Source of the DNA: an uncultured Azospirillaceae bacterium | GTDB taxonomy: Bacteria > Pseudomonadota > Alphaproteobacteria > RF32 > CAG-239 | Assembly (NCBI GenBank): GCA_964410325.1 | Contig: CAYPFN010000008.1 | Location: 6,570 to 70,569 of the forward strand | DNA: 64,000 bases | Reading direction: 5' to 3' | Shown here: positions 9,725 to 41,736 of the stretch, piece after piece | Position numbering within the stretch: the first letter of the stretch is position 1 | Layout of the letters: every line of letters starts with the position of its first letter | Translations under genes and position numbers: made by a program | The notes under the pieces: model-generated | Databases searched by the model: none | Told to the model about the DNA's origin: nothing | What the model saw: the letters and a program-made list of their open reading frames with translations, nothing else

Positions 9725-9786
9725 TTAAAATCTTATCCTTGTTTCCGGTTAAAATTTAAAACAAAACCCGCTTATATAAAAAATTG

Positions 9787-9835
9787 CACGCCAGTGTGCG
9801 AACCCTCGCTGACTGGCGGCACTCCTCGGAGTGTA
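9787..9835 (-). ncRNA. Alphaproteobacterial ffh leader RNA motif
   Basis: Minus strand reads CACUCCGAGGAGUG-CC-GCCAGUCAGCGAGGGUUCGCACACUGGC: two hairpins (cactcc/ggagtg and gccagt/actggc) upstream of ffh, matching my recollection of the ffh motif. Confidence 0.75.
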
Positions 9836-37054: not shown

Positions 37055-37996
37055 ATGGCTGAATATAAAACAAAAGTTCTTATCATCGGATCTGGCCCTG
37101 CCGGTTATACAGCGGGCATTTATGCTTCCCGTGCCGGCTTAAATCCGGTTTTGGTTTCTGGTTCCCAAATCGGCGGACAGCTGACTATGACCACGGATAT
37201 CGAAAATTTTCCAGGTTTTGCCGAACCAATTTCCGGACCGCAGTTAATGGATAATATGCTCAAACAAGCCCAAAATGTCGGCACGTGCATTGTTAACGAC
37301 AAAATCACGGAAGTGGATTTCAATCATCGCCCGTTTATTTGCAGTTCTGAAAACGGCAACGTTTTTCAGGCGGAAACCGTTATTATCTGCACCGGTTCTT
37401 CCGCCCGCTGGCTGGAGCTTGAATCTGAGAAAAAATATATCGGTTTTGGTGTGTCGGCATGCGCAACCTGTGACGGATTCTTTTATCGTGGCAAAAATGT
37501 GGCTGTCGTCGGCGGCGGTAACACCGCAGCGGAAGAAGCGCTTTATTTGACCAATTTTGCCGCCAAAGTCTACTTAATCCACCGTCGCGATGCGTTACGC
37601 GCCGATGCCGTTATGCAAAAGCGGCTGCAAGACAATCATAAAATTGAAATTGTCTGGAACAGCGTTATCGATGAGGTCTTAGGTTCTGATCAGCCCTTGG
37701 GCGTAACTGGTATTAAACTCCGCAACGTAAAGACAGATACAGTTTCGCAAATGCCTTTAGATGGTTTGTTTGTCGCCATCGGCCACCATCCCAATACAGA
37801 TATTTTCAAAGAATATATTAAACTAGACCGTGAGGGCTATATCATCACCGCACCAGGTGGCACTGCCACCAACGTTCCTGGAGTGTTTGCTGCTGGCGAT
37901 GTGCAAGATCCAAAATTCCGCCAAGCCATCACTTCTGCCGCAACTGGTGCCATGGCCGCTATGGAGGCCGAAAAATATCTGGTTGCCCAGGACTGA
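37055..37996 (+). CDS. trxB: Thioredoxin reductase
   Basis: GSGPAG, GGQL, CATCDG, GGGNTA, HRRD, GVFAAGDV. Confidence 0.97.
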   Translation: MAEYKTKVLIIGSGPAGYTAGIYASRAGLNPVLVSGSQIGGQLTMTTDIENFPGFAEPISGPQLMDNMLKQAQNVGTCIVNDKITEVDFNHRPFICSSENGNVFQAETVIICTGSSARWLELESEKKYIGFGVSACATCDGFFYRGKNVAVVGGGNTAAEEALYLTNFAAKVYLIHRRDALRADAVMQKRLQDNHKIEIVWNSVIDEVLGSDQPLGVTGIKLRNVKTDTVSQMPLDGLFVAIGHHPNTDIFKEYIKLDREGYIITAPGGTATNVPGVFAAGDVQDPKFRQAITSAATGAMAAMEAEKYLVAQD

Positions 37997-38014
37997 AGTC
38001 TTTATTAGAAAAGT

Positions 38015-38049
38015 AAAACACTGCCTTTAATTCTGGCAGTGTTTTTTTT
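38015..38049 (+). terminator. Intrinsic terminator after trxB
   Basis: aaaacactgcc / ggcagtgtttt stem followed by a T run. Confidence 0.85.
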
Positions 38050-38052
38050 GAC

Positions 38053-38080
38053 TTGACATTTTACCAAAAACTGTTAATTT
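38053..38080 (+). promoter_or_regulatory. Putative sigma70 promoter of the NAD salvage operon
   Basis: TTGACA-N16-TAATTT with an extended TG; predicted start about 38086, at the 5' end of the RNA motif. Confidence 0.6.
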
Positions 38081-38085
38081 ATAAT

Positions 38086-38140
38086 TGTTCTTGGTGCTTG
38101 CAGGGCTTATAGGCAGAGAACATTATAACAACCCGAGCCA
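38086..38140 (+). ncRNA. Candidate riboswitch aptamer, copy 1 (unassigned class)
   Basis: P1 tgttctt/gagaaca, 2-nt bulge, P1a tgctt/aggca, loop gcagggcttat, then aaccc and gagcc (pseudoknot partner of ggctt). Confidence 0.65.
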
Positions 38141-38202
38141 GGTTATGTTCAGGAAATTTGTATTTCCTTTAATAACGTGGCTCCTTAGTAAGGAGTTTTT
38201 TA

Positions 38203-38745
38203 ATGTCTGAATTTAAATATCAACATGGTTTAACCATTATGCGCGCCCAACCGTTTCATATCGGGCACGTTAAATTGATTGACTGTATGTTAAACGAATG
38301 CGAACGTGCCACCGTTATTCTCGGTTCCATTCAGGAACAAGGCACTGCCCGCAATCCTTTAAATTACACTACCCGTAAAAAAATGATTCAAAATATTTAT
38401 CGACATCGGCCGGAATATGAACGCTTAAAAATCATCGGCTTGTTTGATATTAATAATCCGGCCGAATGGGGCGAATATGTCTTAGATTTTATTGCCGAAA
38501 CTTTTCCGGATTTGCCACAACCTGATGTTTATTATGCGGGAAGTACATATGATGCTCATTGGTTTAAAGAATGTTTCAAGCATATTGAATTAGTTGATCG
38601 TACGGATCCAGCATTTCCATTTGTCAGCGGTTCCATGATCCGCGACATGATAAAATTCGGCGACGAACGCTGGAAAAATTTTATTCATCCTGAAAACCAC
38701 CATATTGTTGAGGAATATTTCAATCGCAAAAAAGCAATTATTTAA
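38203..38745 (+). CDS. NadM-like nicotinate/nicotinamide-nucleotide adenylyltransferase (cytidyltransferase fold)
   Basis: RAQPFHIGH (HIGH motif), ILGS, NPL...R..MI, VSGSMIR; operon context. Confidence 0.75.
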   Translation: MSEFKYQHGLTIMRAQPFHIGHVKLIDCMLNECERATVILGSIQEQGTARNPLNYTTRKKMIQNIYRHRPEYERLKIIGLFDINNPAEWGEYVLDFIAETFPDLPQPDVYYAGSTYDAHWFKECFKHIELVDRTDPAFPFVSGSMIRDMIKFGDERWKNFIHPENHHIVEEYFNRKKAII

Positions 38746-38768: not shown

Positions 38769-38835
38769 AACGCCTGCGTCTTCTGCAGGGCTTATAGAAG
38801 ACAGGTGTTCTAAACTTTAACCCATGATAAGCCTG
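38769..38835 (+). ncRNA. Candidate riboswitch aptamer, copy 2 (unassigned class)
   Basis: P1 aacgcct/aggtgtt, 2-nt bulge, P1a gtcttct/agaagac, identical loop gcagggcttat, then aaccc and aagcct next to the Shine-Dalgarno. Confidence 0.65.
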
Positions 38836-38849
38836 AAAGGGGAAATACC

Positions 38850-39476
38850 ATGACTAAAACCGTTTTAATGCGAATAGATTTTCAAAACGATTTTGTGCAT
38901 CCGCAAGGGCGCCTGACTGTTAATGCGCCAGACTTAATCCACAGACAGCAAAAATTTGCCGCAAATTTGCAAAACAATATGTTTGATATTATTATTGATT
39001 CATACGATACCCATTTTTTGGAAACATATGATGATACTATTGAGGCTGAAACTTATCCGCCACATTGCATATTCGGCAGCAAAGGCTGGCAGTCGGCTGC
39101 ACCGTTTAAGAATAATATCCCGCTTATCAAAATTTTTAAGTCCACCACTAATATCTGGCATGAAAAACACGCCTATGCTGTCTTAAACAGCAGTTGGAAA
39201 GACAAAGAAGTTTATTTATGCGGCGTTCTAAGCGATGTCTGTGTCAAACAAGCGATGGATGGTTTATTAAAACGCGGCGCCAAGGTAAGCATCTTGGAAG
39301 ACTTGTGCCTAGGATTACACCGCCAAATTCCGGAAATTTTAAGCGACAGCCAATATCGGCAGTTTATTAACAGTGGCAGGCTACGCAGCCTCAGCAGTTC
39401 CCAATTTTTCCGCAGCTGTTTGCTGGAACAAAAAAAACTTCACAATCACGTTCATCTTAATCGAGGAGATAAATAA
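38850..39476 (+). CDS. pncA: Nicotinamidase (isochorismatase family)
   Basis: IDFQNDF, D.H, PPHC, K, GVLSDVCV; operon context. Confidence 0.85.
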   Translation: MTKTVLMRIDFQNDFVHPQGRLTVNAPDLIHRQQKFAANLQNNMFDIIIDSYDTHFLETYDDTIEAETYPPHCIFGSKGWQSAAPFKNNIPLIKIFKSTTNIWHEKHAYAVLNSSWKDKEVYLCGVLSDVCVKQAMDGLLKRGAKVSILEDLCLGLHRQIPEILSDSQYRQFINSGRLRSLSSSQFFRSCLLEQKKLHNHVHLNRGDK

Positions 39477-40951
39477 TGACAACTGCAATTTTATCATCAG
39501 GCACGCCACTTTTCTGCGATCTATACCATTTAACCATGGCTCAGGCCTGGTTTATGGATAACAAGCACATGATACCTAAAACCTCTGAAGCGTTTTTCCG
39601 CAAATGTCCGTTCGGCGGCAGTTATCTTTTAAGTGCCGGCTTGCAGGAATTTTTGCAATGGGCGCAAAATTGGCACATCGGTCCTCATGATATTGAATAT
39701 CTTGCTGGGCTTAAAAACAGTGAAAATCGGCCATTGTTTAAAACTGAATTTTTAGAATTTTTAAAAGGACAATCTCTGCAGTTGGACATTCAGGCCGTCC
39801 CCGAAGGTGAAATCGTTTTTCCGGGAGAACCGATTATAAGTGTTAGTGGTCCGAGTTGGCAAGTTGATATGATTGAATCCGCATTTTTAAATATCTTTAA
39901 CGCTCAAAGCCTGATAGCCACTAAGGCCTCGCGCATGGTTACGGCGGCCACGGCTGACGGAACGCCACGTCCGGTAATGGAATTTGGTCTGCGTCGCGCA
40001 CAAGATTTAGGCTGTTTTTTACCGACCCGCGCCGCATTTATCGGCGGCTGTTCTGGCACTTCAAATGTTAAAGCGGCAAAACATTACGGCATTCCGCCGC
40101 AAGGAACCATGGCGCATTCTTTTATTATGAGTTATGCCGACGAACTGGACGCATTCAAAACCTATATGCGCGCCTCAGATGGAAACACCACTCTGCTGGT
40201 GGACACTTATGATACCCGCCAAGGCATCAAAAACGCCATTCGCGCCGCGCAGGAAACTGGCATCAAGCTACAAGGCATTCGTATTGATTCCGGCGATCTG
40301 GCTTATTGGGGAAAAGAGGCCAAAGCCATGTTTGCAGCCGCTGGTATGTCGCATGTCCGCCTGTTGGCTTCCAATGATCTGGATGAATATTTAATTGAAA
40401 ATCTGATTATGGTGCAAAACGCCCCATATGATGCTTTTGCCGCCGGCACCAAATTGGTAACCGCGTATGATACGCCGGCTTTGGGAGGCGTATACAAAAC
40501 CAAGCAATATAACGGCGAGCCAAAAATCAAAATTGCTGAGGGCAAAACCACTATTCCCGGGGCAACTAACGTCTTACGGATTGTTAAAAACGGCAAATTT
40601 GAAGGAGATATCATTACCCGCCGGCAGGATTTAGACTCTTTGCTTAACAACGGGCATTTAGCCAAAAGCCTGACTTCATGGCGCCTCAATTCCACCACCG
40701 GCGAACGCTTAACTTTTGCTACCGGGGAGCAAGCTTACAGCCTGCTTAAGCCAGTTATGATAAACGGCCACGTGATTGCGGAAGATATCAATTACCCGCT
40801 ATCGCAAATTCAACGCAAAGCCACTCAAAATCTTAACTGTTTGGATAAAGCTTATAAACGCCTTGCTAACCCGCATTTTTACGGCGTAGGATTAGAACAG
40901 GATTTATATAAACTGCAGCAAAACTTAATCAAACAACATCAGGAGCGTTAA
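39476..40951 (+). CDS. pncB: Nicotinate phosphoribosyltransferase
   Basis: DLYHLTM, FFRK.PF, EFGLRRAQ, GTMAHS, LVDTYDT, GIRIDSGD, ASNDLDE, LGGVYK. Confidence 0.93.
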   Translation: MTTAILSSGTPLFCDLYHLTMAQAWFMDNKHMIPKTSEAFFRKCPFGGSYLLSAGLQEFLQWAQNWHIGPHDIEYLAGLKNSENRPLFKTEFLEFLKGQSLQLDIQAVPEGEIVFPGEPIISVSGPSWQVDMIESAFLNIFNAQSLIATKASRMVTAATADGTPRPVMEFGLRRAQDLGCFLPTRAAFIGGCSGTSNVKAAKHYGIPPQGTMAHSFIMSYADELDAFKTYMRASDGNTTLLVDTYDTRQGIKNAIRAAQETGIKLQGIRIDSGDLAYWGKEAKAMFAAAGMSHVRLLASNDLDEYLIENLIMVQNAPYDAFAAGTKLVTAYDTPALGGVYKTKQYNGEPKIKIAEGKTTIPGATNVLRIVKNGKFEGDIITRRQDLDSLLNNGHLAKSLTSWRLNSTTGERLTFATGEQAYSLLKPVMINGHVIAEDINYPLSQIQRKATQNLNCLDKAYKRLANPHFYGVGLEQDLYKLQQNLIKQHQER

Positions 40952-40953
40952 AT

Positions 40954-41736
40954 ATGAATGAGACAATTTGGAAGAAACTTAAACAAGGGCTTGAAAATTA
41001 TTGTCGAAGCAACGGTTTCCAAACTGTTGTTCTGGGATTGTCCGGCGGTATTGATTCTGCACTGACGGCGGTTTTGGCGACTGATGCTTTGGGTGGCGAA
41101 AATGTTAGTGCAATCATGATGCAGAGCAAATTTACCTCGCCTTTAAGCATGGAAATTGCCCGTGAAACTGCTAAATTAAACAATTTTCAATATCATGAAT
41201 TGAATATTGAATCGCTGGTTGCCACTGAGCAAGATTTCTTAACCGCGGCATTTGGCGAAACACCTAAAGGCATTGTCATGGAAAATCTGCAAGCCCGTAT
41301 CCGTGGCAAAATTCTGATGTCCTGGTCCAATCAATACGGCGGTCTGGTTTTGGCCTGTGGCAACAAATCTGAGGCAGCTACCGGATATTGTACCTTATAT
41401 GGTGATACCTGTGGCGGATTAATGCCCATCGGCAATTTATACAAAACTGAAGTTTTTGCATTGGCTAAATGGCGCAACGCCCAAAGCCGGGTTTTGCCCA
41501 GCGAAGTTTTGATACGCGCGCCAAGTGCCGAACTTTCCTTAAACCAGAAAGATGAAAACACTTTACCGCCCTATCCGATTCTAGATAAAATTCTCAGGCT
41601 TTATATTGACGAACATAAAACCAAAGAACAAATTATTGCCGCCGGGTTAGATGCCCAAACCATCGATTGGGTAATTAAACGTTATCATGCTATGGATTTT
41701 AAACGGCGGCAGATGCCTCCGGCTTTGGCTTTATAA
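40954..41736 (+). CDS. nadE: NAD+ synthetase (synthetase domain only, NH3-dependent type)
   Basis: GLSGGIDS, ENLQARIRG, GNKSE..GY.TLYGD, PSAEL..NQKD...LPPY..LD. Confidence 0.93.
   Translation: MNETIWKKLKQGLENYCRSNGFQTVVLGLSGGIDSALTAVLATDALGGENVSAIMMQSKFTSPLSMEIARETAKLNNFQYHELNIESLVATEQDFLTAAFGETPKGIVMENLQARIRGKILMSWSNQYGGLVLACGNKSEAATGYCTLYGDTCGGLMPIGNLYKTEVFALAKWRNAQSRVLPSEVLIRAPSAELSLNQKDENTLPPYPILDKILRLYIDEHKTKEQIIAAGLDAQTIDWVIKRYHAMDFKRRQMPPALAL

Follow-up and report, generated by a model that had tools for sequence, protein, structure and literature searches.

The window analysed here is a 64,000-nucleotide stretch of DNA from an uncultured gut alphaproteobacterium with a 1.34-Mb assembly. 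It carries a four-gene operon, comprising a nadM-like gene, a pncA-like gene, pncB and nadE, which together constitute the Preiss-Handler route of NAD salvage. A gap of 207 nt separates this operon from trxB, and this gap holds the leader under study. The genes and the predicted promoter are as follows, in window coordinates.

37055-37996: trxB, with its own classical stem and U8 terminator at 38015-38050
38053-38080, + strand: predicted promoter (-35 TTGACA, 38053-58; 16-nt spacer with TG; -10 TAATTT, 38075-80)
38203-38745, + strand: NadM-like nicotinamide/nicotinate-nucleotide adenylyltransferase, the first regulated gene (180 aa; PF01467)
38850-39476, + strand: isochorismatase/PncA-like gene
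39476-40951, + strand: nicotinate phosphoribosyltransferase PncB (TIGR01513, above curated cut-off)
40954-41736, + strand: NAD+ synthase NadE (TIGR00552, above curated cut-off)

The best NCBIfam matches of the NadM-like protein are archaeal-type NMN adenylyltransferase models, all of which score under their cut-offs. A box of the form TTGAC(A/T)-16 nt-TAnnnT, positioned 6 nt 5' of the G of GUUCUU, recurs across orthologous leaders, and because of this conserved box transcription is predicted to start near G38087, the first G of the P1 helix described below. The hexamer TATAAT at 38080-85 was rejected as a -10 box; its spacer to TTGACA would be 21 nt, and orthologues carry non-promoter letters at this site, such as TAAGCT. 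No RNA run was found to contain the window. In a common human-gut orthologue, contigs derived from RNA runs begin, as weak evidence for the start, 11 nt 5' of the predicted position or inside the leader; the upstream spacer is uncovered by these contigs, and one of them runs through the hairpin that precedes the start codon into the gene. The RNA-derived contigs fit a leader that is transcribed together with the operon, and are uninformative on termination.

Architecture of the leader

The helices of the leader, from the predicted start of transcription to the start codon of the nadM-like gene, are listed below.

38087-38121, + strand: sensor hairpin, copy 1 (P1 38087-92/38116-21; bulge GG 38093-94; P2 38095-99/38111-15)
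38100-10, + strand: 11-nt sensor loop GCAGGGCUUAU, with GGCUU at 38104-08
38130-38144, + strand: P3 mini-hairpin (AACC 38130-33/GGUU 38141-44; loop C-GAGCC-A), in which GAGCC (38135-39) is the shared switching segment
38135-38183, + strand: long hairpin, with base GAGCCA 38135-40/UGGCUC 38178-83
38142-46/38172-76, + strand: middle of the long hairpin, GUUAU/AUAAC
38152-58/38163-69, + strand: apical helix of the long hairpin, AGGAAAU/AUUUCCU
38179-38201, + strand: terminator-like, Shine-Dalgarno-masking hairpin (GGCUCCUU 38179-86, loop AGU, AAGGAGUU 38190-97)
38190-95 and 38196-38201, + strand: Shine-Dalgarno sequence AAGGAG and U run

Among 121 distinct sensor hairpins from relatives, all 12 base pairs show changes on both sides and 95.7% of cells are paired, and the loop core AGGGCUUAT (AGGGCUUAU) is without variation in the family. 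A search of the 1.34-Mb genome found just two copies of the sensor, both inside the NAD operon. A one-mismatch pattern search across the order was discarded as too noisy. The leader thus opens with a conserved, structured domain supported by covariation, one of the features by which riboswitches are recognized.

A reading made earlier from the sequence only had proposed that the segment GAGCC pairs either with the loop of an aptamer, as a pseudoknot, or with GGCUC in a long hairpin, and that these mutually exclusive pairings form a translational OFF switch. All of the helices on which this reading was built are found in the sequence, including AGGAAAT/ATTTCCT, which is enclosed by the inverted repeat. 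GGCUC does have two partners, GAGCC or the Shine-Dalgarno strand, and both helices are kept by coordinated substitutions in relatives. The alternative partners of GAGCC likewise held up. GAGCC is not a free strand, however, being the loop of a covarying P3 helix of 4-6 bp, so that its contact with the sensor would be a loop-loop kiss. P3 also competes with the long hairpin. Its 3' strand doubles as the 5' side of the inner part of the long hairpin, so that only one of the two can form at a time.

GAGCC is flanked by a stem of at least 4 bp in 78/78 leaders. Within the family the P3 stem occurs as AAAC/GUUU, AACC/GGUU, AACU/AGUU or GAAC/GUUC, and in other lineages as AGAG/CUCU, CGGC/GCCG or GAC/GUC, the covariation being stronger outside the family. 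Outside P3, GAGCC has two mutually exclusive partners, GGCUU in the sensor loop and GGCUC at 38179-38183, and all three pairings are conserved among relatives.

The kiss between GAGCC and GGCUU (38104-08) comprises four Watson-Crick pairs and one G.U pair. The contact is invariant in the family and therefore yields no covariation there, and outside the family its G-C, G-C and C-G pairs are still invariant. Copy-2 RNAs of genus g319 have the loop GGGCCUAU together with the partner UGGCC, a change from U-A to C-G, and copy 1 in the same genomes retains U and A. At kiss pair 25-53, 47 rows have U.G and 4 have A-U. Kiss pairs 4-5 are mismatched in some lineages, leaving only three G-C pairs: A.A in one metagenome leader (L183), G.G or A.G in copy 1 of g319, and A.G in the divergent subfamily described below. 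The kiss is likely to be real on comparative grounds, with weaker support than the other helices have. The leader with the A.A mismatch (L183:773-891) has the loop GAAGGGCAAAU, a change of UU to AA, and retains GAGCC, so that its kiss would shrink to GGC/GCC; copy 2 at this locus has the usual loop and the partner UAGCC.

A long hairpin competes with P3

An inverted repeat of 12 nt, complementary at 11/12 positions (92%), is made up of GAGCCAGGTTAT (38135-38146) and ATAACGTGGCTC (38172-38183). The minimum-free-energy fold of the leader, at -34 kcal/mol, contains the long hairpin (z = -2.1; 7 of 200 shuffles were as good). The fold of the single sequence is mildly unusual only, and the comparative evidence is the strong part.

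When GAGC and GCUC were forced to pair, the intervening interval folded as one continuous arm in every orthologue, with a mean of 21 bp and 75% of nucleotides paired. The mean z-score of this arm against shuffled interiors was -2.2, its length ranged from 13 to 31 bp across leaders, and the first internal loop was no larger than 2x2 in 53/71 leaders. In the sequence-only alignment A3, 6/7 pairs of the inner helix change on both sides and the proportion of paired cells is 81.6%. For the sixth base pair (58-131), 45 rows have G-C, 12 have A-U and 12 lack a pair; covariation at this position was rejected as statistical proof, since after correction for phylogeny, with 4-5 independent contrasts, it was not significant (median p = 0.5). 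In three close relatives AGCUC replaces GGCUC, which places a mismatch in the base of the long hairpin.

Two further observations concern the extent of this hairpin. One clade carries an apical insertion of about 130 nt, perhaps a small mobile element or an extra regulatory module. In L147 (688-865) it lengthens the arm to 178 nt and -44 kcal/mol, and it recurs in L096, L098, L100, L104 and L110 as well as in many contigs from the human gut. In the window sequence only, AACCC (38130-38134) can pair with GG.GUU of the Shine-Dalgarno region (38192-38197). The window's fold with the long hairpin pairs CC at 38133-34 with the Shine-Dalgarno GG, extending the hairpin across an 8-nt bulge, and orthologues are without the needed CC.

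The hairpin predicted to mask the Shine-Dalgarno sequence resembles a terminator

The 3' strand of the long hairpin overlaps a second helix. A terminator scan flagged GGCTCCTT (38179-86) and AAGGAGTT (38190-97), which form 8 pairs around a 3-nt loop and are followed by TTTTAATG. In the window this masking stem of 8 bp includes three G-C pairs, has a folding energy of -7.6 kcal/mol and precedes a U run of 6. All leaders contain the hairpin GGCUCCU/AGGAGUU, whose energy lies between -7.1 and -9.6 kcal/mol; it is weak, with two G.U pairs beside the U run.

That the Shine-Dalgarno sequence can be masked, as the earlier reading had it, is borne out by these leaders; its restriction of the switch to translation probably does not hold, as the invariant U run before the AUG suggests a switch that is transcriptional too. 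A U run of 6-9 lies directly before the AUG in 71/71 copy-1 leaders. Because this conserved U run is not needed for Shine-Dalgarno spacing, and because the stem with its U run has the signature of an intrinsic terminator, the hairpin probably acts as an intrinsic terminator as well as a mask of the ribosome site.

It could be argued that the hairpin merely masks the Shine-Dalgarno sequence, and that the U run is an A/U-rich spacer or a ribosome-standby site. At about -7.9 kcal/mol the short stem is weak, and it has G.U pairs beside the U run; two related leaders described below (copy 2 and the nadM-like leader of genome G270) work without a U run, and the RNA-derived contig of the human-gut orthologue extends past the hairpin into the gene. 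In the ON state, however, read-through would occur in any case, and the neighboring trxB gene ends in a classical stem and U8 terminator, indicating that such signals are used here. Moreover, besides the 71 copy-1 leaders, genus g319 and the divergent subfamily also keep the U run, whereas hairpin-loop length and the other spacers vary freely. We therefore regard a switch acting on translation alone as unlikely, and favor a hairpin that serves both levels.

Coordinated substitutions maintain two exclusive helices

To assemble the comparison, 80 genome loci and 80 metagenome loci encoding a NadM-like protein were fetched. From these, 78 distinct orthologous copy-1 leaders from gut and rumen Alphaproteobacteria were parsed, all of which are built to one plan: first the sensor hairpin, then a linker, P3 with its GAGCC loop, a variable region, (C/U)GGCUCCU, a loop of 3-13 nt, (A/G)GGAG, 6-9 U and AUG. 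GAGCC, [A/G]GCUCC, the Shine-Dalgarno strand and the U run are retained in 78/78, and the anti-Shine-Dalgarno helix proposed in the sequence-only reading is found in every examined leader carrying the motif. Elsewhere among the fetched loci, a nadM-like orthologue lies directly behind another gene and has no leader motif on two metagenome contigs (L186 and L195), and more distant homologues are likewise without the motif. The sensor model gave no match in the genome of one member of the same family (G002, genus g2).

No covariation is available within the family for the kiss, for the base of the long hairpin or for the masking hairpin, all of which are constant there. In a divergent metagenome subfamily (L188, L189, L191, L192 and L193), all three interacting segments differ. 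UGGCC replaces GAGCC, the 5' strand of the masking hairpin is GGCCUUUC rather than GGCUCCUU, and the Shine-Dalgarno strand is GAGAGGUU or GAAAGGUU rather than AAGGAGUU. A structure-guided alignment has A/U/A at positions 54/135/155 in 50 rows and G/C/G in the five rows of the divergent subfamily, so that the long-hairpin pair 54-135 is A-U in the former and G-C in the latter. In the same subfamily, pair 136-154 changes from C-G to U-A, and pairs 135-155, 136-154 and 137-153 of the masking hairpin covary. These counts come from a covariance-model-based alignment (A6) in which copy-2 hits were mixed with copy-1 hits; rows were filtered by hand and pairs counted by script, and the row of L192, which was off by one column, was brought into register by eye.

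The change from A/U/A to G/C/G is direct comparative evidence for the proposed alternative pairing, and represents a single evolutionary event. Because position 135 stays complementary to both of its alternative partners, two exclusive helices appear to be under selection.

In the divergent subfamily the gene that follows nadM-like is a CofE-like F420-0:gamma-glutamyl ligase homologue (PF01996). This gene has a different conserved structured leader (L189:1430-1513, and the same relative position in L191, L192 and L193), GAUUUGGGUCUUGURGGGACAGUCGAGACAAAUC ... CCUACUGUCAAGGAG, with an apparent pseudoknot onto the Shine-Dalgarno sequence and no Rfam match.

Energetics of the alternative folds

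The fold with the long hairpin (ON) is the minimum-free-energy fold in 52/71 leaders, and lies 2.5 +/- 2.2 kcal/mol below the fold with the masking hairpin (OFF) when neither a kiss nor a ligand term is included. The corresponding values for the window are -34.1 kcal/mol (ON) and -25.7 kcal/mol (OFF), and an isolated loop-loop duplex would contribute about -7.7. These modeled energies fit a switch. Additionally, P3 and GAGCC are transcribed 39 nt before GGCUC, so the sensor could commit before the competing strand exists.

These results also bear on whether the leader switches at all, rather than containing static structures that affect mRNA stability or damp translation at a constant level, with the complementarity of GAGCC, GGCUU and GGCUC being incidental. 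Inheritance alone could explain the co-occurrence of core segments that never vary within the family, and the z-score of the single sequence is modest. Yet two hairpins that share GGCUC and cannot coexist are both maintained by the coordinated substitution of G/C/G for A/U/A, covariation is seen in both of the overlapping elements P3 and the long hairpin, and the ON and OFF folds are energetically balanced across 71 leaders. A static leader is, in our judgment, highly improbable, and a leader with alternating folds is the reading that we pursue. The leader has the mutually exclusive helices overlapping a sensor that are typical of riboswitches, namely P3 and the kiss, the long hairpin, and the terminator/Shine-Dalgarno hairpin.

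A second copy of the motif and its distribution

The second copy of the sensor lies between the first and second genes of the operon.

38771-38842, + strand: motif copy 2 (P1 38771-76/38802-07; bulge CG; P2 38779-84/38796-801; loop 38785-95)
38827-33, + strand: copy-2 partner AUAAGCC, in the loop of a hairpin (ACCC 38820-23/GGGG 38839-42) whose 3' strand is the Shine-Dalgarno sequence

The sensor hairpin of copy 2 (38771-38807) has the same register as that of copy 1, and its partner AUAAGCC can form 7 bp with its sensor loop. The platform of copy 2 is simpler and has no U run. The two copies appear, from their sequences, to have a common kissing architecture with different outputs.

Among 401 sampled genomes of the class, 8 had matches to the motif at E <= 0.01. 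Three of these are in the window's family, three are genuine matches in other families, beside nadM-like or pncA-like genes, and two are weak and chance-like. The motif precedes nadM-like or pncA-like genes in four alphaproteobacterial families, and is sporadic but tied to the NAD pathway. Searches of the families of G270 and G277 covered one genome each and added nothing further. A first metagenome scan with the g319 protein as query gave no matches. The motif thus keeps a steady position in 5' leaders of one metabolic pathway across lineages, a further mark of riboswitches. In G270, a higher-G+C alphaproteobacterium, the leader before the nadM-like gene is without a U run. The same genome has a copy of the sensor hairpin (L123; contig 2, 655075-655117, minus strand) before a gene for a radical-SAM protein, which is not a classical NAD gene, and this copy has a U9 run upstream of the Shine-Dalgarno sequence of that gene.

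The reuse of the motif is relevant to the nature of the signal. A protein or another RNA, rather than a metabolite, might flip the switch by binding the invariant 11-nt loop, either by itself or together with the loop that contains GAGCC, and thereby favor the terminator, in the manner of TRAP or PyrR. An invariant loop on a variable stem also looks like a protein-binding site, and the kiss covaries little and is reduced to 3 bp in some lineages. However, the partner strand is always complementary to the loop, by up to 7 bp in copy 2, and a compensatory change is present in g319. Furthermore, three platforms reuse the motif (a terminator with a Shine-Dalgarno mask, a Shine-Dalgarno hairpin, and a U run before the Shine-Dalgarno sequence), a modularity typical of riboswitches, and an unsystematic look at the window and the examined orthologous loci revealed no conserved regulator gene beside the operon. 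We consider a protein or RNA trigger distinctly unlikely and take a small molecule as the more plausible signal.

Comparison with known RNAs

No Rfam family matches copy 1 or copy 2 at E <= 10, and none matches the relatives' loci at its gathering score. Elsewhere in the window, at 9781-9833 on the minus strand, the ffh sRNA model of Rfam (RF01793) scores 37.1 bits, slightly over its gathering score of 35. A full-text search of the literature found no paper on this motif or on a third NAD-related riboswitch class.

The earlier reading had also suggested a hybrid or tandem sensor, on the grounds that a segment running to AGGUU loosely recalls the aptamer bulge of the NAD+-I riboswitch, and had proposed a search with the corresponding nadA model. 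That suggestion did not survive comparison. With the NAD+-I model (nadA motif, RF03013), neither 37950-38300 nor the complete 1.34-Mb genome yielded a match at E <= 10. ACAACCC loosely resembles the NAD+-I bulge, ACANCCCC, yet it is found only in the window sequence; orthologues have AAAACU, AUAAACC, CAAACC, UAACC and other forms, and the segment varies because it is merely the 5' strand of P3. NAD+-I likewise controls NAD biosynthesis genes, but the window leader is without its tandem bulged-stem domains.

The NAD+-II riboswitch (pnuC motif) was also rejected, as its architecture is different and no Rfam model of any family matched either copy at E <= 10. The pnuC motif is built from P1 and P1a, with an internal loop between them, and from a pseudoknot in which the ribosome-binding site lies (PMC7749635). 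It is alike in being found in leaders of the NAD pathway, in coupling a pseudoknot-type long-range contact to the ribosome-binding site, and in its expected OFF logic (PMC7749635, PMC9841397, PMC10085692). In the window, in contrast, a bulged hairpin with an 11-nt loop would kiss the loop of a second hairpin, and switching would be carried out by a separate anti-terminator/terminator pair. The hosts and genes also differ, being gut Alphaproteobacteria and nadM, pncA, pncB and nadE for the window RNA, and Streptococcus and pnuC for NAD+-II.

The closest functional analogues appear to be switches built on loop-loop or pseudoknot contacts, namely guanidine-II, preQ1-II and SAM-II. The guanidine-II (mini-ykkC) RNA has two small hairpins whose conserved loops pair when ligand is present, the second element being coupled to the Shine-Dalgarno sequence. 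Copy 2 looks exactly like an arrangement of this type, and preQ1-II and SAM-II are further loop-loop or pseudoknot analogues. The ACGR tetraloops of guanidine-II are unrelated to the window loop GNAGGGCUUAU and to GAGCC/AUAAGCC, as are the gene sets, and copy 1, unlike guanidine-II, adds a long anti-terminator arm.

In Bacillus subtilis leaders such as guanine xpt and SAM-I, an anti-terminator shares its 5' strand with the 3' portion of the aptamer, and ligand binding frees the 5' strand of the terminator, the default state being ON. The logic proposed for the window, with an anti-terminator and a terminator, is like that of these transcriptional OFF platforms. Unlike them, the window leader would use the Shine-Dalgarno sequence as the 3' strand of its terminator and the U run as the spacer between the Shine-Dalgarno sequence and the AUG, so that one hairpin could act at both levels. 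The window's anti-terminator is also unusually long in comparison with these platforms and tolerates apical insertions.

Discussion

We propose, as the probable explanation, that an uncatalogued, riboswitch-like RNA governs the NAD salvage operon and that positions 38130-38205 serve as its expression platform. In the model that we put forward, the leader would begin near G38087 with the sensor hairpin and its invariant 11-nt loop, followed by GAGCC in the loop of P3. In the default ON state, GAGCC(A) and (U)GGCUC would close the long hairpin, thereby keeping CUCCUU from the Shine-Dalgarno sequence; the terminator would not form, and the operon would be transcribed and translated. When the sensor is engaged (OFF), P3 would form and the GAGCC loop would kiss the GGCUU of the sensor, a contact that a ligand presumably locks. 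With GGCUC thereby freed, GGCUCCUU would pair with AAGGAGUU, creating a hairpin that, with the U run, would halt RNA polymerase just before the AUG and mask the ribosome site on any read-through transcripts.

A small molecule that stabilizes the kiss, the OFF polarity and actual termination are each predicted by this model. Given the genes under control, the ligand would most likely be NAD+ or a pyridine-nucleotide intermediate or precursor. The RNA might represent a third class of riboswitch, unrelated in structure to the other two and specific for NAD+ or a pyridine-nucleotide intermediate, in which the ligand is read through a kiss, a single hairpin serves as terminator and mask, and the sensor is reused with two output modules; we hold the case for such a class to be evenly balanced. 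The model of the platform names the nucleotides that would pair in each state, the mutations that would lock it ON or OFF, and a short terminated transcript ending at 38196-38201.

The coordinated change at three positions illustrates cleanly, in nature, how selection acts on two helices that exclude each other. To our knowledge, only two classes of NAD+ riboswitch have been described, and neither controls Preiss-Handler salvage genes. The bacteria that host the RNA described here have very small genomes and are likely to rely on salvage of vitamin B3. Should it bind NAD+ or an intermediate, this RNA would provide a new sensor fold for a universal cofactor in abundant, uncultured gut Alphaproteobacteria.
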